63,995 nt of DNA, filler included, from Catajapyx aquilonaris (GCA_000934665.2; 3 parts of 3 records of this genome joined end to end with filler, not necessarily neighbours in it), one strand, 5' to 3'; counted from the first letter of the whole stretch, positions 3,564 to 55,000 are shown. Numbers and translations: made by a program. Notes: generated by a model not told the origin, from the sequence alone.

Positions 3564-3571
3564 TATATGTA

Positions 3572-32270: not shown

Positions 32271-32664
32271 TCCTATGCAACTCTCTGATACGGTAGTGTA
32301 ATATATAAGTCTCCGCCTTGGCGCTGCAGGCGCTCCAACGATACCCCAGTCACACTCGGGTGGCTGGTGGGTGGATCTGCAGCTCGATTCCGTGATACTG
32401 TGCGGTGCATGCGGTGTGTCGGGATTAAAAAGGCCAGAGGCCTTGGCCTTGTTTAGGTTTCCTAGCCATCCCGAGAGAGCCCTGCAGTGGTTTAGGTTTT
32501 GTTTTTGTTAGGTTTGGATTGGTTCAGAACAGTTCAGAAGGCGACAAGGCGTCTGCCCGAGTGTCCTTGGGTCCCCGATTGAGTGCCGCCAGCGCCAAAT
32601 CATAGGCTGACGGAACCTTTTATATTAAACTATCGTCACCATAGAATGTAATTAATGTAATTGT

Positions 32665-34100
32665 AATGGTGTAGTTCCTAGGGATTGGAGGGATGCTATT
32701 ATAGTACCTCTGTATAAGGGCAAGGGAGATGTGTGTGACTGCAAGAATTATCGTGGCATTAGTTTGTTAAGTGTACCAGGGAAAGTGTATGCTAAGGTTT
32801 TGATAGAAAGAGTTGAAGGGACACTCCACTCAAAATACAAGTTGGGTTCTAAAAATCGGGCAAAAAATCCTGATTCCGAGGGTATAAGCAGTTTTTCTTA
32901 GAGACGAACGGTAAGGCCAGTGTGAAAGCTGCAAGTGTGTCGTTCGAAAACCACGCGGGGGGCGGTGGGTGCAGGTGGCGACGCCACTAGAGTGGAACCG
33001 GGCGGAACTAGACCAGGCACGCCTGGCGCGGCAGGTGTTTACTGTGCGCGTTATACTTCTCCGGTTTGACGCGGGATGGTGCTGTATCGCCCTTCCTAGC
33101 AGACGACGTGTGTAGATATATGATTTTCCGTGATTTTCCGTGTTACCGTTGGGCGTAGAAAAAACCGATTGCACATTCGGAATCAGAATTTTTTGCCCGA
33201 TTTTTGGGGGCCAACTTGTATTTTGAGTGGAGTGTCCCTTTAAGAGGGTCAGAAGTCAGAGAATACTGGATATTCAGAGTGGGTTTATGTCGGGTAAGAG
33301 TTGTGTAGATCAGATATTCTGTATGAGACTCGTGATAGAAAAGTATTTAGCTGTAAACAAGAAGGTTTTTGTTGCCTTTGTAGACTTAGAGAAAGCATAT
33401 GACACAGTAAGCAGGGAAGGTTTGTGGGAAGTTCTGAGTCTCTATGGAGTGAAGGGCTGCCTGTTGGAGGCTGTAAAGTCATTATATGAAGAGAGTAGAG
33501 CTTGTGTTAGAACTAGTGGGGGTTTCTCTGACTGGTTTAACATTAGTGTTGGGGTTAAGCAGGGTTGTGTCATGTCTCCCTGGTTATTTAACTTGTACTT
33601 AGATGCATGTGTAAGGGAAGCTATGGTTGAAGGTGTAGGAGTGCAGTTTGGTGATGAGTTAGTTAGTCACTTGCTGTATGCAGATGATTCTGCCCTTATG
33701 GCGGAGAGTGAGGCTGATTTACAGTTGATCCTAGGCACGTTAGATAATGTTTGTGAAAAGAGGGGTATATGAGGATTAACGTAGATAAGACTAAGGTATT
33801 GGTATTTGAGAGGGGACAGCAAGTTTTTCCTTGTATGTTGCAGGTACGAGGAAAACTGGTTGAGCAGGTCAACCAGTTTGTATACTTGCGTAGTGTCCTT
33901 GAGAGTAATGGTAGAATTGATGGGAAAATAGACAGGAGAGTTAGTTCTGGGTTGAAAGTAATAGGTGCCACAAGTAAGTTTTCTAGAAATAAGGACTTAT
34001 CTTCCGCCTGTAGGTTGTCTGTCTATTCTCACGTTATTGTTCCTTCACTTATGTATGGTAGTGAAGCGTGGGTTCGGTCAGATAGGCATAAGAGTAATCA
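32665..34100 (+). mobile_element. RTE-type LINE reverse transcriptase fragment
   Basis: VPRDWRDAIIVPLYKGKGDVCDCKNYRGISLLSVPGKVY...QSGFMSGKSCVDQIF...FVDLEKAYD...GVKQGCVMSPWLFN...LLYADD, frameshift near 33770, then YGSEAW. Confidence 0.9.
32817..33239. mobile_element. Kolobok-like non-autonomous DNA transposon inserted in the RT
   Basis: TIR AGGGACACTCCACTCAAAATACAAGTTGG; TSD TTGA/TTAA. Removing it restores the RT frame (ERVKRVRSQRILDIQSGF). Confidence 0.8.
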
Positions 34101-34506
34101 AAATGATTTTATGTATTTTATTTTTTGCGTATCTCAAAACTTTGGTAGTGACTCTCGTATAAAGGTTCCCATTTACAGAGGTAAAGATAGCTTCAGCTAA
34201 AATCACAATTTCACGAATAACATATGTGTGTTCCGCAAGACAGGTCTGTTTCGCTACAGAAGGCAAACCCACACATTTTGATAAGATTGTTTGGGCAAAA
34301 GAACTTGATGGAAAACATGACCTAATGACAATGTGCAAATGTCCCTTTTTGGTAGGACAACAAAGTTGACCTTATAGGTTTCATAGTAGTAAAGGGCGCT
34401 GTAGAAAGTATAACCCCATAATTAGGCTACATAGGAATTTACATGTTGCCTGTTATATGTGATATGTACTAGAGAAACTCCATAATCATAATTGCAAAAT
34501 CCTGAC

Positions 34507-34718
34507 CTGTTGTGTGGCTGCAAGCACTTCCTTGTTGAGGTTGCTTCTTTGCTCATTCCAATACTCATAGGCATTCTTGTAATTGAGCCACACCATTATA
34601 GCACGATCCACTGCCTGTGGCTGGATGTAGATCAATGGTCGATTCAAGGTAATGAGAACCACCTCTTTCTCCTCTGAGTCTGATGAAGCCATCTCATCTT
34701 GAAAGGCATTCCTCAAAC
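34507..34718 (-). CDS. BLTP1: BLTP1/tweek exon
   Basis: tgtAG|GT TTG...CAG|GTcagg, phase 1/0. Encodes LRNAFQDE...VLITLNRPLIYIQPQAVDRAIMVWLNYKNAYEYWNEQR. Confidence 0.93.
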
Positions 34719-35089
34719 CTACAATAAAATTGTTGCTTTAAATCTCAAGCTTAAAACTAAAAAAAGTTGAATGGAATGAAGATAGGCCTACTCAAAATTC
34801 TGATAGAGGTTGCAACAACCTAGCAATCATGGCACATCTACAATATATGTCACATCTTCAGAAAACATACAAGAAACAAAATAATTCTGGAAAATCGACC
34901 TATACCAATTCACATGACACTGAAGTTATGTGCTTCGCATGTTATATGTAACTCAAAACACTACTGAACAAGAAGTGACTTGTGACAACTAATAATAATA
35001 ATAATGGATACCCCGTGATAAGCCTCCTTGGGCTTTTTAGGGGATCATCTTTTAATTGACGGACTTTAATCATTGCCTTTGCTGTGATG

Positions 35090-35243
35090 GATTTTGATAG
35101 TGGGAGGAAACAGAAGAACCCAGAGAAAATCCACACGAAAACGGGGAGAACCCATCAAAACTCGATCCACATAAGTATCCTGTCTGATCCGGGGATCGAA
35201 CTCGGGACCTTAGAGGTGGAACCACTCTGCCACCGTGCCGCCC
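35090..35243 (-). mobile_element. tRNA-headed V-domain-like SINE
   Basis: Minus strand reads GGGCGGCACGGTGGCAGAGTGG...GTTCGATCCC...GTTCTCCCCGTTTTCGTGTGGATTTTCTCTGGGTTCTTCTGTTTCCTCCCAC, resembling the V-SINE central domain. Confidence 0.65.
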
Positions 35244-35368
35244 ACTAACTTGTGATAACTATTGTAAATATGATCCCTTCAGTTTGTATACATTGAAAAA
35301 AGGAACAATGCTCCACACCTCTACCTTTTCAATGTAGTACAGTATTGTGATGATTAAAATGCACTCAC

Positions 35369-35741
35369 TAATCCTGGTCTTGAAGAAGGCAAACTCCTGA
35401 TACTCTGGCTCAGCCTCTTCAAACACAGTGTTCCTGTTAAGCTGGCCCAAGCTGAGATTAATTTCCACATGTGCTTTTCCAAACAGCTTAACCTGCCTGC
35501 TGGAATGAGGCACCCTGGACACATTCTGAACACGGTTAGACAGCTGAAACTCCACTATTCCAGTTTCCAGTCTAACAGCCGAGTTGGTCGGGGTGGTGGC
35601 TGTTATTTGTATGCCCTTAAGACGAACTACTAATGCAAAAAGGAGGTGGCGAGGTGTTCCAGAGAGTTCCTCACTGTCATCCAACCAGAGGGGGACTGGT
35701 TTGTCACCACCAGACATCTTTTGGACCACTTCATTTACTTC
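35369..35741 (-). CDS. BLTP1: BLTP1/tweek exon
   Basis: tttAG|GAA GTA AAT...ATT A|GTgagt, phase 0/1. Encodes EVNEVVQKMSGG...GIQITATTPTNSAVRLETG...FFKTRI. Confidence 0.93.
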
Positions 35742-37525
35742 CTAAATAAGAAGACAAAGTACAAAATATTATCATCAAATTTCATGGTCATTGTGCATTT
35801 TTAAAATGTTAAAAATTACGATGACTTGATATTTTTTGAAGATTAAAATTTCTTTGAGCTTCAAGAGAGAAATATGTTTAAGTTGCAACATTTTCAAAAT
35901 CGTCGACATTCCCATCACCACTACTTTTTGTGCCTTTTCATACATTGAAAACCGTGTGAAATGTTATCCACAATATACAATCTTGCAGAGATTTATACAA
36001 ATTCCACATACAAACTGGATAAGGGCAGATAGCCCAGACCTTTTGAGTGGGACGTCAACAGTGAGAAATCTTGATTTTCAAATAAGAAAAAACTGGGCAT
36101 GTGTGTCATGTAGTGTCATTCCAACCACACCATATGAGAATGCGGCCGTCAAAGGTGGCTATCTTCGCCAAACGCTATTCCGAGAAAATGCCCATTTTGT
36201 AGATTCAATTTGTATGGCTGTAAATGGGATTTCCAGATTTCATCCTCTTGTTATGACTCAAAAAACAAAAAAAATCATTTCGATCTGGCTCTTTAGCTCG
36301 TTAGGTGCCTCATTACTTAAAGATTTTAATGGTAGTGTTAACTCAAAAATGACAAAAATGGAACGCTTTTGGCACGCAGCTGTTCCTGAAATATCCTTAT
36401 GGGTTGCCTTGGCAGCCCGTTCGTACACACAGATCGCAGTTAGTCATACTGCAAGTAGTACTGCATGATGCCGTTTTCTTTTGCGATTGTTTAGACCCTT
36501 GCAAAGCACGGGTTTGCTGCTGCATCTCATATTTTTTTCTCGTTTGTTTCTTTATTAAGTGTGTCTCCATGGACACTGGGAGGGCAGGGAGTGGGTGGGG
36601 GGCATGGAAAGGGCGCCAAGGCAATCATTCTCTGAGCAACCCTCACCCTCTCATGGTCATCAGCTTCCTATTTTGCCTGCTTGGTGGTGGGGCCTGGTGG
36701 GGCTGACAGGGTGGGAGGGAGGGAGGGAGGGAGGGAGGGAGGGAGGTAGTGGGGGAGCACTCAAGGTGGGGGTGGGGTGGGGGGGCTTACGCAAAGGTGG
36801 CGACCCATCCAAGTACTACCCGGTCCCGACATTACTTAACTTCGGTGATCAGATGCAGCTCAGGAAGCTCCCTCCAAACCAAATAAATAATTAATTTTCG
36901 GCATTCAGACTCAAAAAGTGTGGTTTTCGGACTTTTCCTGGAATCAGTGACACGTATTACATCAGTGTACCAAGTTACAGGGCTCCTAGTACTCCGGAAG
37001 TGGGTTAAATAGCCGTGACATACATGAATGAATACCAACAAAGTTCGTGCTTTATATCTATAGAGATGCTGCGGAGGATCTTCGATAATAAAAAGCGTCG
37101 TGTCGTGTCGCATTCCAGTGCATATGGAGGTCGTTGGAGGTTAACCCTAGCATTTATTGAATTGTGCTACATTCAGATGAACCAAGGTAGCTTTAAAATC
37201 AAACATCACGTTTCTAGAGAGAGTGGTAAGAAAAACATAGTAGATTCTTTGGGGGGACTACCTAGTGAAACACCCTGTATTTTTTGCCCATTAACAGGGG
37301 AAAACGAGAAGCCAGATGCATGAATCTGGTTATCCCTGGTCACCCCTTAATGTGATCAAGACTGTGAAGAATTGTATTGTAACTGATGGAAAACCGTTCA
37401 AATTTCACTCAGTTATATTTTCCTACCTTTCTGAGATTGACATGACATTGTAAGCACAGATAGGATATCACAGGAAAACTTAGATTATTCCGCAGCAAAG
37501 CTTATTTAACTTGAATCCTATTATT

Positions 37526-38010
37526 GAAGCGCCCGGGCCCACGGGCAGGATGACAGGAGGGGATGTGCAAGTGCAGTGCATCTGACGTGTGGCCATTTTT
37601 AGTGAGCTCCCCCGGGTGGTTTAGTCTGTAGGAAATACCCCCCGAGACGAAGCCAGAGGTGACCGACCTCTGCACGAGATGAAGGGGGTGTCCCCGGGCT
37701 GGGATCGAACCCGGGACCTTAACCTGTTGAGGGCCAGGTTTTCTTTTCAATTGCAAGCCCCCACACCCCGAGTTTTTTTTTTTTTTCCAAATTCAGGCGA
37801 TAAAAATGAGTGACCAGACCTTAGTATTCTTAGGCAGCTTTGTAAGTGCGTTGCCCCAGGTAGGATTTTCCGCCGTGTCCTCACACCAATGCAATGAATT
37901 TCAAAGGTGTCGAGTCCTGAGGCACGTCTTTCCTCGGCAGTCATATGACTTCCGTGGCCCTCAACAGGTTAACATCCGTAGGCGCGCACGTTACCGCGGC
38001 ACCACTCCGT
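37526..38010 (-). mobile_element. SINE family C copy interrupted by a piggyBac-type MITE
   Basis: Homologous to 47630-47862 on both sides of the insertion. Confidence 0.8.
37723..37968. mobile_element. piggyBac-type MITE, 246 bp
   Basis: TTAA|CCTGTTGAGGGCCA ... TGGCCCTCAACAGG|TTAA. Confidence 0.85.
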
Positions 38011-38076
38011 CTCCCCGCTTGTACATAAACTATTCGCACATAGGGATCCTGCAGGACTTATGAATTTAATTCTTAC

Positions 38077-38198
38077 CTTCATAAACACTTTTTGAACAAA
38101 TACGAGGTGGTTCAGCAAATCAGTCGTGAGGCAGTGCTCAAATGTTCCAATTTCTGCCACAGAACTCAAGTAACTGCCATGTCTGAGTACCACACCAT
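38077..38198 (-). CDS. BLTP1: BLTP1/tweek exon
   Basis: tttAG|AT GGT...AAG|GTaaga, phase 1/0. Encodes GSYLSSVAEIGTFEHCLTTDLLNHLVFVQKVFMK. Confidence 0.92.
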
Positions 38199-38283
38199 CT
38201 AAAAAACATATTACCCTCACAATAATTGTGATGTGTGATGATTATAAAATTAAAAGCCATTCTGACACTATCAATAGCCATAC

Positions 38284-38392
38284 CATCAAACTGCGCCTCA
38301 AGTTGACTATTATTGTCTTGAATGTATTCAGCTGAGACATGAACTTGAGGCAAGTCAATGCTGGCAGCTGGAGGAAGTTTCACTTCTGCACT
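38284..38392 (-). CDS. BLTP1: BLTP1/tweek exon
   Basis: tatAG|AGT GCA...GAT G|GTatgg, phase 0/1. Encodes SAEVKLPPAASIDLPQVHVSAEYIQD. Confidence 0.9.
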
Positions 38393-38451
38393 CTATAATA
38401 GCAGTGTCAAAGGTGTAATGAAATTCAACTACATATTCATTTCAAAGTTAC

Positions 38452-38598
38452 CTGGAGCTTAGTGGTGAAACTAAGTGAATGTTTGGCCAAATCTATTGTA
38501 AACTTAGCTTTGCTTCCAGTGACTCCCATGCTTGTGACTTGGTCCATCATGTATTGAGCTTGTAGCGATGGCAAAAGAGCAGCAGTGATGCTTAAACT
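38452..38598 (-). CDS. BLTP1: BLTP1/tweek exon
   Basis: ttcAG|AGT TTA...CAG|GTaact, phase 0/0. Encodes SLSITAALLPSLQAQYMMDQVTSMGVTGSKAKFTIDL. Confidence 0.92.
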
Positions 38599-39225
38599 CT
38601 GAAATGGCACAAACAATGGCAAAATAAATTACAATTACATATTTGAAGCTTTGTGGCAACAAAGTGCACATCTTGAGTGCATGTATAGGTATCCTGAAGA
38701 GCAAAGAAAGACCCATGTGCAACATTTATTTCATGTTTTTGAAAGAGTCTGCAACTGACACATTTAGCATCTGATTCAGCACACAGTCACCCACAACATA
38801 TGTAGCTCACAATGAACCCCTCCCTCGAAGAAGGGTGTATGCAACAAAAGTGAAGTTCAGAAAAAAACGACAAAAACAGGATGGAATAACCATCCTTCTT
38901 ATGGGACAAGCTACCTTTCGAGCTCTGCTGTGATGAGCGAAATTGCCACAGGCAGACCCAGGTGGTATCATATGGTGGAGCAGAAGGGAAACTACCTTTT
39001 CCACTGGCCAGTTCAATTCGGCAATTTTGCTACATACACCCTTCTTCGAGGGAGGGTTCAATTGGTGGAATGGGGGAGGGGGGTGGAGGTCATCCAAGCT
39101 CAAATCCTTCCTAACTGAACTGCACACACCCAAATCAACCAGAAATATGGAAATAAGTATGCAGGCATAAGAATGATTTATCTTGAGCTTTTGGGTCATG
39201 CAGTAAACATTATCTACTATTTTAC

Positions 39226-39402
39226 CTGCAAAATTATTGAAAATTGCATGACAAGTGGCTGGAGGAAGCTTGACTCCCCTGCTCGCTTCTGATTGATGTA
39301 TGAGTCCTGAGAGAAAAGTGGAGGGTTCTGGGCAGCAAAATCAATCTCATCCACTGTAGTTCCTCGACTTATTCGGCTGGCTGTTCGTGTCACACGCAGC
39401 TC
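39226..39402 (-). CDS. BLTP1: BLTP1/tweek exon (absent from the ORF track)
   Basis: aacAG|GAG CTG...CAG|GTaaaa, 177 nt, phase 0/0. Encodes ELRVTRTASRISRG...FLQPLVMQFSIILQ, continuous with SLSITAALLPSL. Confidence 0.88.
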
Positions 39403-39458
39403 CTGTTTTACATAAATTTGTCACATATGTTATAGCCAAGAGCCTTACAAAAACTTGC

Positions 39459-39642
39459 CTGCAGTGTAGTAGACAACTGCTTGGTGCTCCTGGTCATCAT
39501 TCCATGTAACACTACAGGATGCTGAGGAATATCAATGTTTATGGCTCCTACAGTCAGGAGTCCTGAGTTCTTGTCCTTAGACTTCTTGGACACACTGGAG
39601 TACAGGGCTTGTGACTTTCCAACTGTCACCTTCACTACAGTC
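39459..39642 (-). CDS. BLTP1: BLTP1/tweek exon ending in a GC donor
   Basis: ggtAG|G ACT GTA...CTG CAG|GCaagt, phase 2/0. Encodes TVVKVTVGKSQALYS...VGAINIDIPQHPVVLHGMMTRSTKQLSTTLQ. Confidence 0.9.
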
Positions 39643-39923
39643 CTACCATGCAAAGTGCAGAAGATATTATCATCATGATTATGCACTAGTTGAAACAGCA
39701 TGCATTGAACCATCCATATTTTCCTTGACTATTTGGAGTAGAAAACTGACTTTTCGCATGCAGTGATATGGAAACAGCACATCACAACTTCAATGAAATA
39801 TCATGTAGACTAGCCATATGCCTAACTTTTCTAGCTGCCTAAATAGCGAACCCTTTATTTCGTATGGCACAAAAATGAACTTTTGAGAGAGTACACTCTA
39901 AGTCACTTGCCCTTTCAAATATT

Positions 39924-40852
39924 CGAGGAGTGATCAAAAAGTAAGGTCTCCAAGGCTGTAACCTTTATTCTGTATGAACACAAATGACGAAACTTACAGG
40001 GTACATGAGGACAATGGACATCTACTTTTCTACATAGTTTCCACACCGAAGAACACACTTCTCCCACCGCCAGACCAGTTTCTCAATCCCTTCCCAATAG
40101 AAAGGGGTGCCCTGTTGACAGCACCAGTCACGCAGCCTTCTTCACCTCATCGTCGCTTCGGAGATGCTGACCTGCCATGTCTGCTTTCAGGGCTCTGAAA
40201 AAGTGATAGTCTGTGAGGGCTAGGTCGGGAATATAGGGTGGGTGAGGAAGAACTTCCCAGTCGTATCCATTCAGCAAAGCCATGGTGTCCCTCGATGTGT
40301 CCGGACGGGCGTTGTCGTGCGGAGAAGGATGACCCCAGCAGTGAGCAATCCTGGAAGTTGCGACTATCAATTCGGAGCGCAGTGACCCTGGCGAAGTTGC
40401 AGAAGGCCATCAGGTGGAAACGACCAGGATTGCTCACTGCTGGGGTCATCCTTCTCCACGACAACCCTCGTCCGCACACATTGAGGGACACCATGGCTTT
40501 GCTGAATGGATACGACTGGGAAGTTCTTCCTCACCCACCCTATATTCCCGACCTAGCCCTCACAGACTATCACTTTTTCAGAGCCCTGAAAGCAGACATG
40601 GCAGGTCAGCATCTCCGAAGCGACGATGAGGTGAAGAAGGCTGCGTGACTGGTGCTGTCAACAGGGCACCCCTTTCTATTGGGAAGGGATTGAGAAACTG
40701 GTCTGGCGGTGGGAGAAGTGCGTTCTTCGGTGTGGAAACTATGTAGAAAAGTAGATGTCCATTGTCCTCATGTACCCTGTAAGTTTCGTCATTTGTGTTC
40801 ATACAGAATAAAGGTTACAGACTTGGAGACCTTACTTTTTGATCACTCCTCG
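39924..40852. mobile_element. Mariner-derived fold-back MITE (two inverted 3' ends)
   Basis: Arms 39924-40354 and 40424-40852 are near-identical inverted repeats. Both encode HDN.RP...WEVLPHPPYIPDLALTDYHFFR; termini CGAGGAGTGATCAAAAAGTAAGG. Confidence 0.92.
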
Positions 40853-40909
40853 TACATTGTTTATAATTTCAGTTAATTATTTCAAATAAAGAAAAACCTT
40901 CCCACTCAC

Positions 40910-41495
40910 TGCAAGTTTGGTGCAACACCTTCTAGAAGTACAATCATGGTTCTTCCAACATGGCCTGTAAGTGAAAATTCCACACTGGCTGGTCTAGCCT
41001 TTTTCTTATAGCATGTTGATGATTGCAAGTTGGTGATCTCACTCTCAAGCTTCAGCCCACTCAGGGTGGCCAGCAGGCGGGTGCGCTGGATTCTTGCCAC
41101 CCCAAACACAGTCAATCGAGGCTGATCAGCCTGTGGCACTTGGCCTACTCCTGCACCAGCTCCTACTGTGCCACCCATTACTCCACCATCCACCTCTTCA
41201 ATCATCTTTTCCTCATGGAGCAGATCATACTTTCGGCTGCCTTTATACCCCTCAGAGGCATCTGGTGCCGGAACCAGAGAAGGACGGTTGTTGGACACAG
41301 TTTTGGTCTCTGGAGTGGTAGCATAAAGGTCAAGCAGGTAGTAGACTGTCCTCCAGCACCTTGGTGCAGCTACCAGATTCTCTTTGCTTGCAGGGGTTTT
41401 GTCAAAACCATCAGAGACAGGGTCTATGGTAGTGGGGCCATCTGCTTGCACCTGGTCAGGACTATTGATACCTTCCTGCAGGTTCTCATAGCCCC
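40910..41495 (-). CDS. BLTP1: BLTP1/tweek exon (first one visible)
   Basis: tttcAG|GG GGC TAT...TTG CA|GTgagt, phase 1/2. Encodes PRCWRTVYYLLDLYAT...VFGVARIQRTRLLATLSGLKLESEI...IVLLEGVAPN. Confidence 0.9.
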
Positions 41496-41902
41496 CTGAA
41501 AAACAGCGGGGAACACTTATTCAATAGTTGTATCAGTTAGGACACTTTTCTGTATGCATTATTAACCACAATAAGCTTGGATTATTTTTCTCATTATGGA
41601 AGGAGTCAGAAGAAATATAACTGCTGGTCTGTTGCTGTTGATGTGACAGAATGGAAGCGTGTTTAATGGGCATGTCTTGGCCTAATCTGGAAGGCTATGG
41701 CAGTTTGGGCTGCACAAACTCACTACAGGCTTCAGTTTCAAGGCACTCCACTGGGTGCAATAGAAGTAGGGTTGTCTTACGCTGTTTTCAGAATTTCCCC
41801 CTTTAATGCTCTCCTCTTTTCCACTTCCCTCTCTAGCCCTGCCCTAGCATTCAAATCCCTTAGAACCTATTCCAACAGATGGTGTACGATACTGTAATTT
41901 CA

Positions 41903-42923
41903 CTACTATCCGTTTATTTAATATAGAGCCCTGTGTTTGACTCTAAATAACTCCCAGGCAAATTATCCAAAAAATAAAGTTATACATCGTTTGAAAGCTT
42001 GTTTAAATCCACGTTACATATATGCGAGTTGTTTTCCTATCGTCAGTCTCTAATTTTTTATCATAAAAAGAAGGTGGAAAAGTGTCATTTTTTGCCTAGT
42101 TGCCGACGTTGCACCGCAAAGTGAATTTTTTATGACACTTTCAGGAGGCCAAAAAAATCCCCATGTGAACCCTGGGTAGTGCACATCTTTGTCTATCTAA
42201 TGATATATTTGAAACATTGAGATCGTCATTTCTGTAATCATAATTAAGTTAATTGCACACCCCTGTTATCTCGGCCATTTATAATCCGAATTACTTCACG
42301 AATGTATCGACGGCAAGCCAGAAATGTGCGTGATAAGATTACATTGTGCTCTATTACACTAAAAATTTTAAACGTATTTAAAAGTATCGCCGTCTATTCC
42401 CGCCAGAAAGCGGGCGGAGTCCTTTTCTATTAAACTTACTTAAACAATACTTTTAAAATTTTTAGTGTAATAGAGCACAATGTAATCTTATCACGCACAT
42501 TTCTGGCTTGCCGTCGATACATTCGCGAAGTAATTCGGATTATAAACGGCCGAGATAACAGGGGTGTGCAATTAACTTAATTATGATTACAGAAATGACG
42601 ATCTCAATGTTTCAAATATATCATTAGATAGACAAAGATGTGCACTACCCAGGGTTCACAGGGGGATTTTTTTGACCTCCTGAAAGTGTCATAAAAAATT
42701 CACTTTGCGGTGCAACGTCGGCAACTAGGCAAAAAATGACACTTTTCCACCTTCTTTTTACGATAAAAAATTAGAGACTGACGATAGGAAAACAACTCGC
42801 ATATATGTAACGTGGATTTAAACAAGCTTTCGAACGATGTATAACTTTATTTTTTTTTGATAATTTGCCTGGGAGTTATTTAGAGTCAAACACAGGGCTC
42901 TATATTAAATAAACGGATAGTAG
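41903..42923. mobile_element. ~1-kb non-coding fold-back element
   Basis: Arms 41903-42372 and 42452-42923 are near-perfect inverted repeats with an ~80-bp spacer; ends (C)TACTATCCG / CGGATAGTA(G). Confidence 0.88.
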
Positions 42924-43468: not shown

Positions 43469-43568
43469 NNNNNNNNNNNNNNNNNNNNNNNNNNNNNNNN
43501 NNNNNNNNNNNNTTAATTAATTAANNNNNNNNNNNNNNNNNNNNNNNNNNNNNNNNNNNNNNNNNNNN
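43469..43568. other. Artificial contig linker (N44-TTAATTAATTAA-N44)
   Basis: Same 100-bp six-frame-stop spacer as 21699-21798. Confidence 0.95.
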
Positions 43569-43819
43569 TCGGATCGGCACTGAAGCGGGAAAAACCAAAC
43601 GAGCCCAAACGTTTACGCCCGATCCGCCGCCAGGTGGCAGGGCAAGCCATCTCCACGGTCCCTATACCCTATTGTACAGAATGGTGCACTGTACTGTACA
43701 GTACATGTACAAATGTGGAGGCAAAAAATTATGCACGTTCCTTCCAGCAATCATTTTATACATAGAACCGATCAAACGAAACAATATTATTTTTTTCCCA
43801 ATTGGTTTCTTCTACTTAC

Positions 43820-44080
43820 CTTGTGTTGATGGCATGGTCTGGTTGATGGTCTCTTCAAGGGTTCGAAGCAACTCGTCCACCTTCTTATCCAGAGCTAGTT
43901 GAACTGTCTGCTCGGATTCCCATAGAAAGTTACGATGGGGCCATACCACGGCCCATACTATGCTCTATTCGACTAGCTGAGCGAGTGAGAAAGCAACCCC
44001 TAGTACGTACTGTATACATACAGCACAAAGTGAGATATTTCCAAACAGGTTTTTTTTCTATATAAACTGGTTGCTAGGAT
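43820..44080 (-). pseudogene. ORF1p-like array: promoter plus coiled-coil exon of a unit truncated near the contig end
   Basis: TATA-like TTTATATAG followed ~30 nt later by CTCACT. Reads WESEQTVQLALDKKVDELLRTLEETINQTMPSTQ and ends at the donor CAAG|GTAAGT. Confidence 0.55.
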
Positions 44081-44575
44081 AGGCAGTCTGCAATGTCTAC
44101 TCCCAATCTTTTTCTTTTGAAATGATAAATTGGGCAGAGAAGCAGAGAGCAGCACAGTTTCTATTGCCGTTCTCTTGATATCTGCTCAGCACTGTAAAAC
44201 GGAAAATTGGACCTTTTTACCAATATTTTTATGCTGATGAGTATCTCTAGGGATGCCGATGACTTCCTATCTGGACTCTCTGTTTTCTTCTAATAATTAT
44301 TTCTAATACCTAATTCCGCCAACCTAATTGCATGGGAACATTCATTTAGGCATATTCCAAAAGTGTAAGAGTCTTGAGGAAGGAGGTGGAAGTGAAGGAT
44401 TGTTTCGACCAAGAAGTTTACTGATCAGACATATATAATTATATTTTGCTTTGANAAATAATGAAATCAATGCGCAAAAGTGAATACGAACAAAAAATAT
44501 GAATATGAATGGTCTCTAATGGGACAGTGAGGCTGTCCCATGAAACAGGTGTTTCAGGAACAGTAGTCTCTTCCC

Positions 44576-46400
44576 TCAAGCGTCGGCGTCGTCAAGGTCG
44601 TCGAGGGTATCCCAGGTCACTGCTTCCGGAGGATCCCAGGCGTATGTAGTGTAAGCGTCCCCTTCAGGATACAGAGTGAGGGAAAATCATCACAATAATC
44701 AACATAAAATACTTTAATGCAAAACAAATATTCAAAAAATGTGTTCATTATTTAATAATGAACATTGATGCATAAATGGAAGTAAGAACATTACCTGGTG
44801 GTTCACCGCCTAAGTACAGTACACCAACCAACAGTGGAAGCGGGAGAGAGGCTGTCACCTGTACAAAGAGAGAGGAAACATGTAAACTAATAAAATAACA
44901 AACAGGCTCATTATTTTTACACTCGCAATATGTTGTCCCCGCGAGCATAAAGATGGAGACGGCAGACCCTCACCTTCGGCGGGCTGCTCTGCCAATCTCA
45001 GCAATTACAGTATCAAATATACTGTCATAAATACATGAACACACGCCTGAAGCAGCTAACTCGGTCCAAAAATAGTTCATTAATTTCAGTCGGATAAATA
45101 AATGTCAAAAAATGACCTGCCGTCTCTATCTTTATGCTCGCGGGGGTACGCATATCGCGCACAAAGTGCATGAATAAAGTCAATGCATTATTGACGCTGA
45201 TTAAATTTTTCCATAAACGTACGTAGTGTACGTACAATATATTGCATATAAACATTATCCCCCAGCTCTTTTATATGGTACAGTACTTGATGTTTGTGAG
45301 AAACGGTATGCACAAAATTACATCAACAAATAACTGTCGACAAATATTGTCCCACTTCCCTTCGGCCTTCTCTGAGTGTGTTAAACATGCGCCATAATGT
45401 CTACTCTATATATTTATTATCATCCTTGCAACACTTTCTGTAACCTATAGCAGTGAAGTCACGGCAGAATACTGCTGCAGTATATTACAAGCCTGTAAGA
45501 TCAGCTCAATAATGTATTAACAGTGTGGTGCCAAAGCTGCGCACTTCTGCGAGGAACCGGATATCTTGTCTCTTCGTCTGCTGACCTTTGACAAAGTCGG
45601 CCGTCAATCCAAAGTACGCATACTCGTATTGTAAATATAGCGAGTAAGCAGACTTTGGGTCGACGGCAGCTTGCCATTCTGTTTTGCCTCGTACAACGTA
45701 TGAAGGAAAGACGTTTCTTCCGCATGGTGTCCGTTAAAAGTCCTCAGAATCAGGCCTAACTGGTGAAATCTTCAGCAGATAAGAAACGCGGATTGGTTTC
45801 TTCGCCTTGGTGGAGGAATTTGATGTTGACCACCCTCGTACGGCGGTCGCCGTTGTATGGGCCCAAGCGGTAGGCCCTTTCGATGAAGACCAAGTTCTCC
45901 CTGTGGACCAAGTTGAAGGGCACTGGCATGTCGCCCTACCTTTGTACTAATCGTAGTGTTCTACCAGATTTCGTCCTTGCCGTCATCGACCGTGCCATAG
46001 AATCGGAAATTGTTCCTCCTTGACCAGTTGTCGGGCTCCTGCAACTTTAGGACTCCTATGAAAGCACGCACAACTGATCTAAGACAAATTCAGTAATGAA
46101 TGTCTCCATAGGAATCCGAAAGTCGCTCATCTCATGAGCAACATCTTGAATGCTCCTATTCTTTTCCACCAACAAATCTTGTATCGATGGTCGCTTCAAG
46201 AGTTCGCCGCAAGTATCCAGATATACTGTGTAGTTGAATATTCTCTGCTCGGATTCCCATAACAGATTACGAATATCCTCTTAAGATGAGGTCATGTTAT
46301 ATGCTATATTCCACTAGCTGAGAGAGGAAGAAAGGGACCGATTGGCCCCCCACAGAGTGAGATATTGCCAAGCAAGTTTCTTCTATTTAAACTGGTTGCT
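44576..46400 (-). pseudogene. ORF1p-like array: most complete unit (LINE ORF1 / Transposase_22-type RRM + CTD plus 3' exons)
   Basis: Reads VLKLQEPDNWSRRNNFRFYGTVDDGKDEIW*...IERAYRLGPYNGDRRTRVVNIKFL...WIDGRLC with stops and frameshifts; downstream exons 44795-44858 and 44576-44661. Confidence 0.65.
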
Positions 46401-46805
46401 ACTTTGCTAGGGTAAGTAATCTGCAATATATCTTTCCAACCTTCCTCTTTAGAAGCGATTCCTTAGGCAGAGCAACAGTAATTTCTAATGTCGCGTCGTG
46501 CCCGTAAAACATGTACAGTCCCTCTAAAACAAAAAAAAATGATTTTTTTTCACGATATTTTTAAATGTACAGTAATCACCGATCAGGGCATCAGGTTATC
46601 TCAATGCGCCGATAACTGCCTAGCTGTTTGCATCTCTCTCCTCATTGATTCTCTGTTTTCGCCTAATTTCGCCAAACTAATTGCATGTGAACATGCACTA
46701 GGATTAATCGCTTGCATATTTCAAAGACAATATCGAACAATTTAACACATACCCAAATCTTAAACAACAATGAACATGGGTGTAAAAATTGGAGCAAGAA
46801 CATAC

Positions 46806-48745
46806 CTGGTGGTTCTCTACCTGAGTACGCCAACCAACAGTGATGGAAGCGGGGGGGAGGCCGTCATCTGTACAAAGAGAGAAAAAACATTCAAATAAAA
46901 TGACTGCTGTGAACTATAATAAAGAGTCAAACTGACTAATTATTTTACACTCGTAATAGGCTTTACAGATGTCAACAAACTGCATGAGTAATTCCAACGC
47001 ATTTGTGGAGCTGTTTGATTTTTAATAAAAATTATATCATACATTGTATTTAAAAAGCATATTCCGCCATCTTCCTTTTATTCGATGTTGTGAGACACTA
47101 TGTGCACAAAATCATGCCAAACAAATTTTAACTGCCGACTCCCTTTGGCCTTATCTGGGAGTCGGACATGCATCAGCATTTCTATCGCCTTGCAACACTT
47201 TCTGTAATCCAGCAGTAAAGATAGTAATGGCTAAGTACCTGCTGCAGTATTAGGATCAAAGTATGTCTCTCTTTACTTTTCTTCTTTTACGGTTAGCCCT
47301 GGCCATGTTATTGTACCCATATATCTGGTGTCTGCTGATGTCCCCCTAAAATGGGCTCCGTCCTATCATGGGATCGAATAAATAAATAAAATAAAAAATT
47401 ATACAGGGTGGTGCCAAGGGTAGCCAGTTCTTCATTGAGGTACCGGCCGGGGAAGTATAGATGCTTATCGCTTCGTCTGTTGGTCTTTGACATAGTCGGC
47501 CGTCAATCTAAAGCATACTGCAGCTTCGTATAAATAAGCGGGGAAGCACACTTTAGATCGACGGCAGCTTGCCATTCGGTGCTGCCTCCTGTAAAAAGAG
47601 ACGAAATTATTTCTTCCTCGTATGCCCATGAGTGGTGCTGCTGTAACGTACGCGCCCACGGATGTTAAGGTCCCGAGTTCGATCCCAGCCCGGGGACACC
47701 CCCTTCATCTCGTGCAGGGTCATCTCTGGCTTCGTCTGGGGTGGTATTTCCAACAGACTAAACCACCCGGGGGAGTTCACTAAAAATGGCCACATTAAGA
47801 CATTGCACTGAACCTTGCGCATCCCCTCCTGTCATCCTGCCCGTGGGCCCGGGCGTTTCAAAAATATGGTCTATGTATAAGTTACAATAAAGGTCCGTGC
47901 CGCATACACTATAGGGTCAGGCACTACCCAAGAATTATTTTTAAAAAATAATAATAAATAATAATAGTTTAATGCAAAACAAAAATGTTCAAAAATTATG
48001 AACAGGAATGCAAAAGTGGAAGCAAGAATACCGTATACCTGGTGGTTCACTGCCTGAGTATACTCCAACCAACAATGGAAGCTGAAGAAAGGCAGCATCC
48101 TATAAAAAGAGGCACAACAATCAAATAAAGTGTATGTATAGGGGGAAAGAGGCGGTGGGAGGAACGGGACAAACAAACAAACAAACTTTGCCTTTTATAC
48201 TATACCGTATTTATAAGATTGCACGTTTCCTGCAGCTCAATCTGTATAGAGGACAGACCACAACATATAGGTCAGAGATGCTCATTCACTATACCTTAGG
48301 CTATGTATCCACTGCCACTGCACTGGAAGAGAGTGCAATATTATTTTTGAGCAAATAATAAGCCAGAAAAGTCCAGCCGATAGGGATCGTAGCATGTTGA
48401 TGTAGTGGCTAACGTCTCAACCGGGGAGGTAGATGATTGTCGCTTCGGCTGTTGACCTTATAGACAAAGGCGCCATCAATCTAAGGTGTGCCAAGTCGTT
48501 AAAAATACGAGGAAGCACACTTTAAATTGACGGCCTCTTGCCATCATGCTTTGCCTGGTGCATAAAGGGTAGAGGCTTCCTCCACGGCCAGTCCAAAGCA
48601 GCAGACTGCATTCGACTGGCAGTGGTTTCTTCCGCGTGGTGGATGTTCGCTGTTAAAAGTACTCATAAACATGAATTTGTTAAATTTTAAGCAGACACAC
48701 GTTCCGCAAGATTTTGTTATTCGCCTTGGTGGACGGGAATTGTCC
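46806..48745 (-). pseudogene. ORF1p-like array: two partial units (CTD, YRKCCK segment, mini-exons)
   Basis: 47420-47620 and 48400-48745 repeat the RMASCRRSKVC/IDG segment; mini-exons at 46806-46867 and 48039-48099. Confidence 0.55.
47630..47862 (+). mobile_element. tRNA-derived SINE family C, uninterrupted
   Basis: A-box-like AGTGGTGCTGCTGTAA and B-box GAGTTCGATCCC; 3' end GGGCCCGGGCGTTTCAAAAA. Confidence 0.85.
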
Positions 48746-49665
48746 TACTTCCCTTCCACCTTCTCTGGAAGTCCTTTCGGAGTCCTTGCAACACTTTCTG
48801 TACTCCAGAAGTAAAGTCACGGCAGAATATGCTGCCCCAGTGTATATTACAAGCCCGTATAAGATCAGTTCAGTAATTATTATACAGGGTGGTGCTAAAG
48901 GTGATAATTATTTTCTTCATTGATGAGGTACCGGCCGGGGAGGTATTGTGCTTGTTGCTTCGTCTAATTGTCTTTGACAGAGTCGGCCGTCAATCTAAAG
49001 GATGCTGTAAGCTTCGTATAAATAAGCTGAGAAGCACACTTTGGATCGACGGCAGCTTGCCATTCGGTTTTGTCTCCTGTAAAAAGAGATGAAGTTTCTT
49101 TCGCGTGGTACATGTCCCTCAGAAATATGAATATTGACAAAAATCTTCAGCAGAACAGGAACATTAGTTTCTTCACCTTGGAGGACAGGAATTTGATGTT
49201 GATCATCCTCGGATGGCCTACGCGGTAGGTCCTTTCGGTCGAGGCCAATAAGTTCTCCGAGTTCACTCGATTGAAGGACACTAATATGTTTCTTACCATA
49301 TGGTTAGTGTTCTTCCAGGCTTCCTCCTTGCCGTCATCGAACATAGATTCGGAAATTGTTCCTCCTTGACCAGTTATAGGATATAACGACTTTCAGACTA
49401 CTATGGAAGCGATCACGGCTGCTTTTCAAGACAAAGTCAGTGATGTGCGCCATAGTAATCCGAAACCCGCTCAGCTCAACAGCTCCAATATTACTCCGCT
49501 TCTTTGCCACCAACCCACCTTGTCTCGATGGTCGCTTCAAGGGTTTGTCGCAACTCCTTCATCTTCTTATCCAAAGCTAGTTAAACTCTTTTATCGGATT
49601 CCCATCAGAACGAGTTACAAATATAGCCTCTAAACATGTAGGCCATTTTATTATATATTCCACTA
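48746..49665 (-). pseudogene. ORF1p-like array: upstream unit
   Basis: Reads LALDKKMKELRQTLEATIET | intron | YNWSRRNNFRIY..DDGKEEAWKNTNHMVRNIL...TERTYRVGHPRMINIKFLSSKVKKL. Confidence 0.65.
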
Positions 49666-50545
49666 GTGGTGGTGGGGGGGGGGGGTAACGTGGTAAGGAC
49701 ATTGGCGTTGACCGCGTTAGATCGAGATTCCTCGAGATTTCCCGTGTAAAAGGGTGGGCCTCGCGGTTATGCGGTATCACCTCGGAATGTCGGGTGTCCT
49801 GTGAGGCAATGCCTCACTATTTCTCAGAGGTCAGAGCCAGGTTGCAAAAATTATACTATGGTATATGGAATCACCTTTTTCCGGAGGAAATACCAAAAAC
49901 CAGGAAAATCGGTACTTGGAGCAGTATATCACTTGGCGGTTAAATATAGCAGCTACAGTTAGCAGTTATCCCGTGAACGCGCGTAGACTGGCTGTGGACT
50001 TGTGGTTGATGATTAGACTCCGGATTTTTAGGCAAGGGCCTATTTAGTTCCTTAACAGTTGGGATGGTTTTGTGAAGAGATTGATCCGTTTCATCCGTGC
50101 AGGATGTGGAAAATTTAGGTTTTATAGTGCCTAAAATGGCATATTTCGTGGTTTTGGGAATCATTTTGCCTATTCTGTCTTTTTGCGACTTTCCATGCCT
50201 ATTTGGACTTTTTTGGGATAGTTTATGAACTTTTTGAAGCGATTTCGGGACTTTTTGGGCCTTTTTCTTCAGAGGCAGGTTTGGGTTTTTGCGGAGTATT
50301 TTTTGTGCTCCTGAAAGGACCAAAATTGTTCAGAAGTAATACTACGAATCATGTTCCTGTGACGCGTACGCCAAATATGTTTCTAAATATATTTTCCTCT
50401 GATTGTTCCAGGCAGAGGAAAATTTAGAAAAATATTTGGCAATATATTGTGCAACTGGAAACTAGTGGTGGGACGAAAATATCATGTCGGCTACTTTGTC
50501 GCTGCTGCAGCAATGTAGCTGCGACTCTATATGTCGACTTTTATT

Positions 50546-50706: not shown

Positions 50707-51852
50707 CTTCTCGGCCTTGAGGCTACTCATCGTGTCGATTTCGGCGACTCGGTGCCCAGCTTAGCAAGTAAATGACCCATGTTCCGGCGTCCAGCATACG
50801 AAGGACGATTTTAATTATTCGTCCTGATTTTCAATTATCGACATAATTATGTGCAACTCGTTGTCATCTCAACAACACTGAGGCAGGAGTCAGACGGAAA
50901 ATGTTTGGGATTTGTGCGAATACAAAATACCGATATAATGTTATTTCTAAGCTGTACGCATTTCAGGCGTTATTATTCTTATACAGTACGGTAATAAATG
51001 TAATTTGAAGTGGACTCCAGGAACTGGTATCTGTAAAGCTCGTATTTTGGAGGTGTCGCCGCGCCGTTGAGCATATTTAACTGTTTATTTATTAATAAAA
51101 ATATCCCAGAAGCTTGTGTGACCTTGAACCCGAAAAAATTTCGCCTGCGGCGAACTGTGTTGCGCACTCGGTTGCGCCCATCAGAAATTCGTCTATACTG
51201 TATACTATACCATTTCAATCCCAGTTAATGCCGACTAATAAATATATTCGAAAATTTAGGACTTGGAGTATCTTCATGCAGGGGTCACAAGCATGTAAAA
51301 AGTAGGCATAAAGTTTTTAAAAATCCATACATTTAGTACTTAACCCTTTGACGGCTACGGGCATCTTATGATGTCCGAGCGTACTTTCCTGCAGGGACTA
51401 CGGGCATCATAAATTATGATGTCTTGAGATTTGCCCTGACAACTTGGGACATTTTCCAACTCCTAAAAGTCCGACCTCACCGATTTTCTTGAAATTCGGT
51501 GCATTGGTAGCCCTAAGCCCACCCACGGGGATGAAAAACACACCTATAATGACCTGCTCAAAATGACCCCGTGACCCATTTTTGAACGAGGCAGAGGTCA
51601 ACTCGTAAAATTCCGACCTTGGCAGGCCACTGCAAGGGATGAAAAACGCATCTATATAGTTACCTGCTCAAAATGACGGTGACCCATATTGGAGGGGGGC
51701 ATATGTCAATGCACTGAATTTCAAGAAATAGGTGAGATCGGAATTTGACCTCTGCCCCCCCCCCTCAAAAATGGGTCACATGGTCATTTTGAGCAGGTAA
51801 CTTTATAATTGATATTTAAGGAGGTTGGCCCAGCATTGCCTTTCAACCTCCA

Positions 51853-52032
51853 AGGATAGGGAAGGAAGGAAGCGGCTGTGTCCTATTATACGGAAGCGAT
51901 CCCGGAATTATCCTAGAAAGACCGTGGAAAGTCACAGAAAACCACAGTCAAGGTTGCCGGCCCCGGGATTCGAACCCAGGACCTCCCGATTAGCAGTCGG
52001 ACGCCTTATCCACTATGCCAACCTGCTTCGGT
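51853..52032 (-). mobile_element. tRNA-derived SINE family B
   Basis: Shared core GGAAGGAAGCGGCTGTG...CCGGGATTCGAACCCAGGACCTCCCGATTAGCAG. Confidence 0.8.
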
Positions 52033-55000
52033 AACTGCAGGTAACTATAGGTAATCCGGGTAATCCGGGGTAATCCGGGCAGTCCGTGGATTATTATTCA
52101 TTAATATCACTCTTCATCAAATTTCCGGAAAGGAAAAAAAAAAACATGAGAGTAAAAGTTCGCAATATTTATTTCCGTTTTCCGCACGGAGACTGATAAA
52201 TGAGAGAAGTTTGTAAATTCTGCACTATCAGGTCTGTATGTTAGGTTGAAACACCGAAAACGTTGATTTAACCGCCGTGGCTGCTTCAAAATAATACGCC
52301 CATAACACATCGTAGCAGTTTTTGGTTTCCAACTATGTCATGACATGACGTAGTTGGAAACCAAAAACATTGTAGATGCCGGCAAATAAATTTCCCTATA
52401 GTTATTTGGCTAATGGTTGAAATACTTAACATTTGATGAGGGTGTGTATCAGCAAGTTTGTCGTCTTTTTCTGCCAATCGGAATACGTATAGGTGTACAG
52501 CATACCTTTTTTGAGCGAGTTGTTGGACGTTAGGGTTCGCTGTCAGCGAAAGGTGTGGTCAACGGCGTTCATCCGACAATGTAGTCGTTCAAGATGGCCA
52601 AAATGAACCCCTCTTTGCACTGGTCATATGATTGTCTCGTTGTTCTCCTAGCATACATCTACATGGTAGAAGGGCACACGCCATTGCACACGCCACTGTC
52701 ATGGTTTCTTTTGTGCAAAACAAACATTAACTTAATGACAATTCTGGCAAGCAACCGTCACAAACATTGGCATCATTGTTGCACAGTATTGTACAAGACT
52801 GTCCCTTTGCCCTTCCCTTCTCGGCTGGACACGCACTTGCCACTACTTTTCACTCAAAAAAAAAGGTAGGCTAATAATAAATCTCAGACTTACCGAAGCG
52901 TCGCGTCGCCTACAGGTGGACGGCGCGGCGCGGCGTAACGCTTCAGTCGGATTACAGCTGTCCGGGAAAAACCTGTGGGAATAGTGTCTGCCATGTATTG
53001 GTACAGTACGTATGATACCAGCTAGTTCGTACACTACATAAGATATAAGAGCAAACAGGACCCAAACTGACTGGATGACTGCCGATCAAAAACTGGAGAC
53101 AAATCCATCTGCTCCTCCGTATACACAAAATACGTATACTGGTAGATCGGGTTGACGCCTTCCCACTAAATTTTGCATATCAATTACCTCGTGGAATTAG
53201 AAACGGTGTTGGGAGATCAAAAGTGAGCTTATGCATTGAAAGATAACACAAACAATGCGTCTTTTTTATTTTTAAGCAGGTTAGATTATTGAAACTGTGG
53301 TTACATTTTTCCTCCCCTGAAGGAATAACCCCTTGCATGCCTTCCATGTGCCTCTAAACGAGGCGTGCGGATTTATTGAAAAGCTATCAATATTTTTGAT
53401 GGCAGAATTCGCAGGAAGGAGTCTTAGAGAAAGCGGCTTAAGCTCCTCGACGCAAATCCTCCGACAACGCAGCTCGGAAATGAGCCGAAAGTGTTTTCTC
53501 TGTCAGGTCTAAAAGGTCAATTTCGGCATATATTTTTATAGGCCTGAAATATTTTTCTCAATATCTTTCTTCTCTCTCTATACTTCCAAGAGTACTCCTC
53601 ACACTTTCAGGATTAACAATCAGTCAAACCTATATTAATCAATAAAAAATATCTATATTTTTTATAAGTGATCATACCTTTTTCCGCATATTAATATTAA
53701 ATCATTTAAAAATAAATATTTGAAATGGTCAATGTAAGTTAAATTAAAACGTCGTTGTAGCCTATATTATAGTGCTATAATTGACTTATAACTCCATCCT
53801 TGACCTATCGTAAAAGAAAAATCGCTAAGGTTACTGTATAGTGTGAAAAAATTATGTGAAAAACTTAAGTTGAGAGAAACCCCGAATTGTTAAGCGGGAA
53901 ATGACGTAATGGTTTTCTATAGAAACGTCCGAAATTTAATTGGAAATCAAAAATAAGAAGCAATTTTCTCATCTATTGACCTCAAGATCGCATCGTGTAA
54001 ATTTTAAAAAGTTCATGCGGACCGATTTTGTATCTTTTTTATTTATTTTTCTACTTCCATAAGTGGAAGTAGAAAAATAAATAGGAAAAAATATATACAA
54101 AATCAGTCCAGGAACTTTCGTGTATATGTGGTGCTCAAGTGTACCCTCACTGACGGTACACTTGAGCACCACATACACAAAATCTCTCTGATGAGTGGAG
54201 GCCTGATAATTTACCCGTCACAAAACCGCTTTATGGCGCAATTCGGGACGCAATGGAAATTACAACGCACAACAAATTAAAATCCCTGCGCCTGTCCGTA
54301 TAAAAGCCCTGGTATTATGAACACCCCACCCTAATTAAAGTGAAATTATGCCTGCCGGTCCATTTGGCAATGTGCTAGACAAATTTTTGGGGGGTCCGCG
54401 CACCCTAAAATCAGTAGTGTTCCGAGGCCATTTGAGCTTATCAAAATCACGCGTTTGTGGTGTTGCGACCATTACACAAATGCGTGCAGATGTTCACCTC
54501 TAACCCGACATTTAAATGCAGATTCGGGTTTAATCTTGATGAAAACGGGGAGAGTCCCACCGTTTTACACCTTGCAGCTGTACAAGGTGAGTCAAAACTG
54601 AACCGACGAAAAACAAGTGTAATGCCAATTGCACGTTATGGAGTTATTTTTCAGCAAGTATAGGATCGTTTTGGTCGTCCATAACCGGTGGCCAGATGTA
54701 ATTTGTATCCGTAGTATTTACTGCGTGTCAGGCACTGAAATTCATCAACTCGGAACCAGACTAATACAACAATTACAATACGCCAGAGTACTGTTTATAT
54801 CCTGTTGTGCATATACACAGACACAAGCCCTTGCGAATAGTGTGTATAAATAATTGAGAGTGTTATCCGCACCGCAAATTTACACGCGGTCCGCAGGCTT
54901 TTGCAAACAATGTTATATTTTTCAGCGTCTTTTGAAGCCTAAAATTCCTCTGTGTATGTGTGTGGCTGCTTTGCATGCTGCACCAGGAGTGTACTTACGT

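Follow-up and report, generated by a model that had tools for sequence, protein, structure and literature searches.

The array and its repeated units

The window considered here is the whole stretch of 63,995 nucleotides (filler included) of DNA from Catajapyx aquilonaris (GCA_000934665.2), and all coordinates are counted from its first letter. Within 43.8-49.7 kb it carries, on its minus strand, five copies of a unit of about 2.1-2.3 kb, in which pieces of a sequence resembling ORF1p, the product of the first open reading frame (ORF) of long interspersed nuclear elements (LINEs), can be recognised: a coiled-coil-like segment, a block resembling an RNA-recognition motif (RRM) and a block resembling a C-terminal domain (CTD). 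The array probably sits, in sense orientation, in a long intron of BLTP1, a gene of the KIAA1109/tweek type, and we shall argue that it is probably the debris of a retroelement.

In the 5'-to-3' direction of the minus strand, the copies come in the order E, D, C, B, A. A first-pass annotation of this DNA had counted about five units; five copies are indeed there, of which B and E are near-complete, while A is reduced to a head and C and D to tail pieces. The features are given below in that order, on the minus strand unless stated otherwise; U is an upstream part, S1 and S2 are spacer blocks, and MITE stands for miniature inverted-repeat transposable element.

48783-49666: unit E, near-complete, 69.7% over 947 nt to unit B
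49520-49666: head of unit E, LALDKK..TLEATIE frame
49402-49519: proposed intron of unit E
49150-49401: RRM-like part of unit E
48879-49149: CTD-like part of unit E
48783-48878: short 3' flank of unit E, about 100 nt, followed by unit D
48421-48741: unit D, partial (RRM-like end and CTD-like part, from blastn of the region against itself)
47950-48132: third copy of spacer S1, separating D from C (77-82% to the other copies)
47630-47930, right limit approximate, no strand: high-copy interspersed repeat, not part of the unit, recognised from contig depth
46736-47621: unit C, tail-only (CTD-like part 47390-47621, S2 46975-47250, S1 46736-46958)
45423-46709: unit B, the most complete copy
46318-46709: upstream part U of unit B, with TAAATAG and CTCACT at about 46385-46350
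46178-46317: head of unit B
46056-46177: proposed intron of unit B, donor position mutated to AT
45756-46055: RRM-like part of unit B, interrupted by TAG in frame (45961-45963) and by a frameshift near 45940
45500-45755: CTD-like part of unit B, scattered over three frames
45423-45499: 3' flank of unit B
44694-45483: spacer between B and A (S2 45161-45483 and S1 44694-44930, parted by a MITE-like insert at 44937-45145)
43819-44357: unit A, head-only, TATATAG and CTCACT in its upstream part U (about 44060-44030), LALDKKVDELLRTLEETI frame
43469-43818: array boundary, with unrelated, mildly repeated sequence at 43569-43818, then a scaffold join at 43469-43568

The repeats of this array are real, beyond chance. 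When the region 42-52 kb was compared with itself by blastn, the match between units B and E (45423-46317 against 48783-49666) reached an E-value of 5e-122, and 43845-44357 matched 46186-46709 at 62% (E 2e-34). There are four copies of the CTD-like piece (45508-45721, 47390-47617, 48421-48586 and 48879-49106), which match one another with identities of 87.3% between C and E, 79.3% between B and C, and 73.6% between D and E; in unit D, 48421-48586 matches 48935-49105 and 45566-45721, and 48650-48741 matches 45731-45820. The three copies of S1 and the two of S2 stand in register with these pieces, so that the tandem duplication proposed at first reading is borne out. The starts of units A and B are 2341 nt apart, a 230-nt MITE-like insert counted in. 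What was duplicated is a segment of about 2.1 kb with about 1.2 kb of non-coding sequence, and not a gene alone. Beyond 43.8-49.7 kb no further copy was found in the full window, whether by tblastn of 11 fragments or by blastn of the whole unit, the remaining protein matches all having E > 0.1.

Both ends of the array are abrupt. Unit E has no homologous upstream part and adjoins, on its upstream side, a high-copy repeat (49681-50444); on its other side its truncated 3' flank adjoins unit D, which points to a deletion across the E/D junction. The likeness of unit A to B and E ends exactly at the donor-like CAAG/GTAAGT at 43819: beyond this site the local alignment scores are 9-12 against a shuffle mean of 9.6-9.7, and were reached by 248/300 and 21/300 shuffles, so that the GTAAGT may be part of foreign DNA. 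Contig depth in the bin 43569-43950 is 155, against 28 in the next bin. If unit A continues, its remainder is missing from the assembly at this place.

The motifs quoted in the first-pass annotation were all recovered, by frame translation, in the minus-strand places that it gave. The LALDKK..TLEETI segment lies in the frame 43812-43964 (unit A), and unit B holds KLQEPDNWSRRNNFRFYG..DDGKDEIW, also read as ..KLQEPDNWSRRNNFRFYGTVDDGKDEIW, in 45961-46089, IERAYRLG..RVVNIKFL in 45756-45935 and LWIDG in 45501-45743. Diverged counterparts occupy the minus-strand frames 49334-49558, 49147-49392, 48964-49303 and 47346-47704; in unit E the LALDKK..TLEATIE segment reads LALDKKMKELRQTLEATIE, in a frame starting at 49619. 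The coiled-coil-like segment is only about 25 residues long, with a roughly heptad spacing (LALDKK..TLE.TI) in A and E; it is degenerate in B, and no start codon was found in its frame in A, B or E. The blocks thus follow the order coiled coil, RRM, C-terminal domain, which is that of the L1-type ORF1 proteins of fish and invertebrates, although no tool confirmed the correspondence. This motif order suggests an ORF1p origin of the units, which we regard as reasonably likely.

Decay of the copies

All five copies are broken by stops and frameshifts, as had been surmised at first reading. The frames that carry the motifs are 42-102 aa long and spread over different frames, so that every copy requires several frame changes; unit E, for example, lacks 5 nt immediately behind the first strand of its RRM (FRIY). 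The alignment of B with E has 868 aligned columns, of which 77.5% are identical. Mismatches at the three codon positions number 4/4/5 where the RRM begins and 17/11/10 over its remainder, a total of 21/15/15 (n = 51); if half of the changes had fallen at third positions, finding at most 15 of 51 there would have a probability of 0.002. Kimura two-parameter distances (K2P) are 0.24 in the head, 0.25 in the RRM and 0.27 in the CTD, to be set beside 0.31 in the proposed intron, 0.33 in the upstream part (A against B), 0.13 in the 3' flank and 0.19-0.28 in the spacers. Among the indels that separate B and E in the RRM and CTD, 3/19 are multiples of three. Across the array, the copies differ by 13-27% in aligned columns.

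The evenness of the mismatches over codon positions, the distances and the indels together indicate that the copies have drifted neutrally since the duplication. None of the five units has an intact frame under purifying selection, and nothing in any copy is a sign of function after duplication. That a co-opted gene expanded under selection finds no support in these figures: the parts that resemble ORFs have changed as much as the proposed intron, the upstream part and the spacers. At the same time, no disabling mutation in the RRM part is common to B and E, B being open across NW..DEIW and E across DDGK..NIKFL; at the time of copying, the founder may therefore have been intact or may have died only recently.

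Absence of an endonuclease and reverse transcriptase, and copy number

Of the 69 minus-strand ORFs of at least 30 aa in 43570-49950, none matched a reverse transcriptase (RVT) or endonuclease family at E <= 5, and the 2.3 kb downstream of the array hold no endonuclease or reverse transcriptase (RT) either, in agreement with what had been noticed at first. A GIY-YIG match was likewise absent from the ORFs of the array (E <= 5), a hammerhead or other ribozyme from 42-52.5 kb (E <= 1), and a poly(A) tract from the unit junctions.

Fragments of reverse transcriptase do occur elsewhere in the window, at 23.6-25.3 and 33.2-34.2 kb, on the strand opposite to that of the array. The first (23592-25277, plus strand) is a GC-rich block, with 60.6% G+C against about 42% around it, which matches RVT_1 (E 1.5e-13) and, weakly, RNase H; this is the remnant of a LINE, decayed and in antisense to BLTP1. 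The second RVT_1 fragment lies at 33227-34197 (E 3.7e-22).

For copy number, contigs from a single sample (three runs) and from a run X5 of unknown kind were aligned to the window at a likeness of at least 80%. In each of the three runs, the ORF-bearing bins are covered by one contig and by no other. In X1 the bin depth of 36.6 is that of record 3 (45121-47334) and the bin depth of 36 that of record 5 (48178-49685), the unique flank 52104-55000 having 33.8. As bin depth equals the depth of the single covering contig, there is neither a second copy at least 80% alike nor a collapsed multi-copy contig: at this likeness the array is single-copy. Run X5 covers high-copy repeats only and leaves the ORF-bearing bins uncovered; it carries no information on expression.

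The surrounding gene

On the strand of the array, the window contains BLTP1 exons at 28597-41511, in eight colinear blocks to which 58 homologues were mapped, separated by introns that reach about 3.3 kb. The best named homologues are those of insects, Blattella germanica (56% identity, a fragment), Laodelphax, Dendroctonus, Ephemera and Drosophila, in keeping with the arthropod supposed at first reading, and the window holds two matches to the Pfam family BLTP1_C (E 4e-37 and 5e-34). The exon that lies closest to the array is the following.

40909-41493, minus strand: most 5' BLTP1 exon in the window, BLTP1_M positions 1111-1258 of 1483, E 1e-08

Since this exon encodes the middle of the protein, the first half of BLTP1 should be encoded further upstream, and the array would then be placed in an intron of the gene, in sense orientation; we consider this position probable. 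A 20-aa tblastn match at 62620-62682, tried as an upstream BLTP1 exon, was rejected as non-colinear.

Inserted repeats

Several repeats have settled in and around the array. In the bins 47389-48152 the summed contig depth is 152,646 and 73,395, against about 37 in neighbouring bins, and at 47630 contigs end loosely in great number (131 in X1, more than 120 in each of the three DNA runs). The high-copy repeat which starts there sits where the RRM and head of unit C should be; 47630-48152 has no match in Rfam. The MITE-like insert of the B/A spacer, about 210-230 nt long with 29-nt inverted ends, has a second copy at 3556-3786 and is present in very high copy, with a depth of 17,953 in the bin 44715-45096 and 63 contigs at one position in X1.

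Upstream of unit E, the high-copy repeat 49681-50444 contains a lysine-rich open frame of 129 aa (49943-50329, minus strand), with no match in Pfam. More nested repeats with inverted copies occupy 50.8-51.6 kb, and beyond them 51591-52354 is a high-copy repeat with a full-length tRNA-like match (51955-52026, minus strand, 39.7 bits, E 1e-05), probably a tRNA-derived short interspersed nuclear element. On the other side of the array, 42000-42824 forms a near-perfect palindrome, with 379-nt arms 98% complementary and a 67-nt loop, a foldback or MITE-like hairpin; its matches in Rfam, to MITE-derived plant miRNA families, are below threshold (MIR8675, 59 bits, the gathering score being 90.8).

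Origin of the array

We may understand the array as non-functional debris, a retroelement-derived ORF1p-like segment that was locally amplified and then decayed neutrally, and we hold this reading to be probable, with ample room for doubt. A single short sequence would have been the starting point, most likely the first gene of a LINE-type element (coiled coil, RRM, C-terminal domain), together with its 1.2 kb or so of non-coding surroundings. Unequal crossing-over or replication slippage would be the likely means by which this segment became about five head-to-tail copies, whose period was about 2.1 kb until other sequences were inserted. All copies have drifted neutrally since; two junction regions (E/D and D/C) have been lost by deletion, and a MITE and another high-copy repeat have entered the array. 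The data show the tandem structure, the breaks, the neutral divergence, the single copy number at the likeness searched and the absence of endonuclease and RT; the ORF1p origin, the means of duplication and the intronic position are inferred. What weighs against this reading comes from the homology searches, from the candidate intron and promoter block, from the joins around the array and from the reach of the copy-number search.

The homology searches were blank. Against the Pfam families Transposase_22, Tnp_22_dsRBD and Tnp_22_trimer (PF02994, PF17489, PF17490), a comparison that the first-pass annotation had itself put forward, none of ten motif-bearing fragments matched at E <= 1, and the 69 ORFs mentioned above gave no match of the Transposase_22 group at E <= 5. 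Sequence searches of the PDB with unit fragments returned no ORF1p chain, only chance matches (E 0.74 and 1.3). With an 81-aa fragment of unit E, phmmer found five matches among 1.84 billion representative proteins, which were rejected as spurious: they are proteins of 1085-2307 aa with 6-14 internal repeats, aligned to query residues 2-55, mostly an out-of-frame leader plus 'FDDG'. A word-index protein search gave no candidate with a 42-aa fragment of unit B, and none of 49 candidates at E <= 10 with a two-row alignment of the RRM; look-ups in the ESM Atlas with unit fragments returned nothing usable, and literature on the motif string 'SRRNN' consisted of unrelated texts. An AlphaFold2 model of the RRM part of E (63 residues, two-row alignment) had a mean pLDDT (predicted local distance difference test) of 52.6 and a pTM (predicted template-modelling score) of 0.29, too poor for a fold search. 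All these queries were 30-102 aa pieces of broken, frameshifted frames, mostly of 42-102 aa, and had low power, so that the blanks are weak evidence.

Such results would nevertheless be natural if the units were unrelated to ORF1p, a local tandem repeat that was possibly never coding and whose likeness to the motifs is coincidental. We regard this as unlikely, while giving it real weight. The blank homology tests, the poor structural model of E and the absent codon-position signal all suit it. Against it stand four motif blocks (coiled coil, RRM strand 1, RRM strands 2-3 and C-terminal domain) in the expected order, itself confirmed by no tool, in two units whose aligned columns agree to only about 78%, and the low power of the blank tests, all made with broken pieces.

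The candidate intron is the single feature that would ill fit an ordinary LINE. In unit E the coiled-coil frame stops 8 codons past CAAG/GTGGGT, and splicing from 49519 to 49401, which removes the 118 nt of 49402-49519, joins that frame in phase to ..SSLKVVISYNWSRRNNFRIY, both donor and acceptor being of phase 2; the donor of unit A and the acceptor of unit B are both of phase 1. Restoration of the frame by splicing would be more in keeping with a gene that has an intron than with a LINE. A branch-like site, CTGAC or CTGAA, lies about 35 nt before the AG. Of the donors proposed in the first-pass annotation, the GT is intact in unit E (GTGGGT), while B has AT in its place and the GTAAGT of A falls at the homology break. 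Frame compatibility would arise by chance in one case out of three; the RRM frame is open through the entire 118 nt in E (a 74-aa ORF, 49334-49558) and, in B, to the last codon, and the stretch is kept as well as the neighbouring parts. Frame-consistent in unit E only, the candidate intron has, judged by sequence, about even chances of being real. The promoter-like signals recur in part as the first reading had it: in A and B, a TATA-like sequence with CTCACT precedes the head by about 100 nt; its spacing would be right for a promoter, and it is well kept between the two units (D14 92%, D6 79%). These blocks are limited to A and B, where they are duplicates of each other, E having no homologous upstream part, and as a candidate promoter they are suggestive at most.

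These features would be expected if, in line with the first-pass annotation, the array were what is left of a spliced host gene derived from ORF1p, once functional, with its own TATA/initiator promoter and comparable to L1TD1, a gene that expanded in tandem, the copies here being dead while working members may exist elsewhere. For such a gene one may invoke the phase-2 sites of E, joining the LALDKK..TLEATIE frame to the ..NWSRRNNFRIY frame, the phase-1 donor of A and acceptor of B, the branch-like site, the TATA-like/CTCACT block (in D14 among the best-kept upstream parts), the absence of endonuclease and RT, and the lack of a disabling RRM mutation common to B and E. But five out of five copies are dead and no sign of selection follows the duplication; a frame that fits has its one-in-three chance; in E the RRM frame runs open through the 118 nt as well, and almost does so in B; the 'intron' is kept as well as the 'exons', the donor of B is AT and that of A lies at the break of homology; the coiled-coil frame lacks a start codon in every unit, and no protein search yielded a relative. 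The domesticated-gene reading thus survives only as a claim about an unseen founder, and a distinctly improbable one. Its fuller form, in which this founder was a spliced, promoter-bearing host gene nested in the BLTP1 intron, an independent parallel of L1TD1, with intact members surviving elsewhere in the genome or in relatives, appears a little less credible again.

Returning to locally amplified debris, the proposed position in BLTP1 meets two objections. Beyond the array, the 22 kb that remain of the window yielded no upstream BLTP1 exon, either among 98 + 138 minus-strand ORFs compared with Pfam or by tblastn of the 58 homologues (E <= 5), and a scaffold join at 43469-43568 (44 N, TTAATTAATTAA, 44 N) parts the array from the BLTP1 exons. 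An identical join lies at 21699-21798, and the mid-gene exons of BLTP1 are on the contig between the two; their adjacency to the array, and to the sequence below 21.7 kb, therefore rests on scaffolding. Furthermore, the copy-number search sees only a likeness of at least 80%, and older, more diverged dispersed copies would be missed.

Finally, construction of the array by retrotransposition, be it of an ORF1-only non-autonomous element of the HeT-A or HAL1 kind or as partial tandems of Penelope-like elements, in which such tandems and retained introns are known (passages of PMC8557442), would agree with the common orientation of all units, with the missing 5' parts of C and D and with the head of about 150 nt at both array ends, a head-body-head layout, but it is very improbable given that there is no RT or GIY-YIG remnant, no ribozyme, no poly(A) at the junctions and no dispersed copy at least 80% alike, that a foreign repeat is inserted just where C lacks its 5' part, and that E is truncated in 3' and A is a 5' piece only, the opposite of what target-primed reverse transcription leaves.

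Comparison with known systems

HAL1 is a mammalian ORF1-only derivative of L1, and HeT-A forms RT-less, head-to-tail arrays at Drosophila telomeres. The array resembles both in its ORF1-type coding capacity devoid of RT, and HeT-A also in its head-to-tail layout; it differs from them in that its junctions lack poly(A), that intact 3' ends with a 5' truncation of varying extent are not seen and that its copies are not dispersed, and from HeT-A in that its BLTP1 context is not telomeric. Penelope-like elements can form pseudo-LTRs (LTR, long terminal repeat). According to passages of PMC8557442 they form partial tandems and keep introns. The array shares with them the tandem layout and the possible intron only, and differs from them in having no RT or GIY-YIG match and no hammerhead (E <= 1).

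The array is like the type II ORF1p of L1-like non-LTR retrotransposons in the order of its coiled-coil-like segment, RRM-like block and C-terminal block, each with a motif where one would expect it. That class (Transposase_22 / Tnp_22_trimer / Tnp_22_dsRBD) reportedly goes back to the work of Khazina and Weichenrieder in 2009; the terms 'type I' and 'type II' for ORF1p classes do not occur in PMC3905857. Unlike its members, the array has no profile or PDB match and no ORF2, it is tandem and not dispersed at a likeness of at least 80%, and its coiled-coil part, of about 25 residues, has no in-frame start codon.

L1TD1 is a mammalian host gene derived from L1 ORF1p, and according to PMC4161310 and PMC11014241 no other gene is known to have been domesticated from LINE-1. 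As in L1TD1, the array presents an ORF1p-like sequence with no ORF2, outside a full-length element; L1TD1, however, is intact, expressed and selected in several lineages, whereas the copies of the array are broken and neutral. If an intact, spliced and expressed relative existed, we would have a second, independent case of the L1TD1 type, in an arthropod, which would be notable, and an intron in an ORF1p-like gene, if true, would bear on how such sequences are copied. Nothing in this analysis shows that such a relative exists.

Tandem repeats and satellites may derive from pieces of transposable elements. The array has only about five copies, on one contig per run at a likeness of at least 80%, and, unlike satellites of this origin, is not spread over the genome. 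It is like other tandem repeats derived from transposable elements in that a segment resembling such an element was, with its flanks, amplified locally and then underwent neutral decay, deletions and invasion by repeats. As it stands, we may take it as one more retroelement-like piece, duplicated locally and left decaying, probably inside a large gene.

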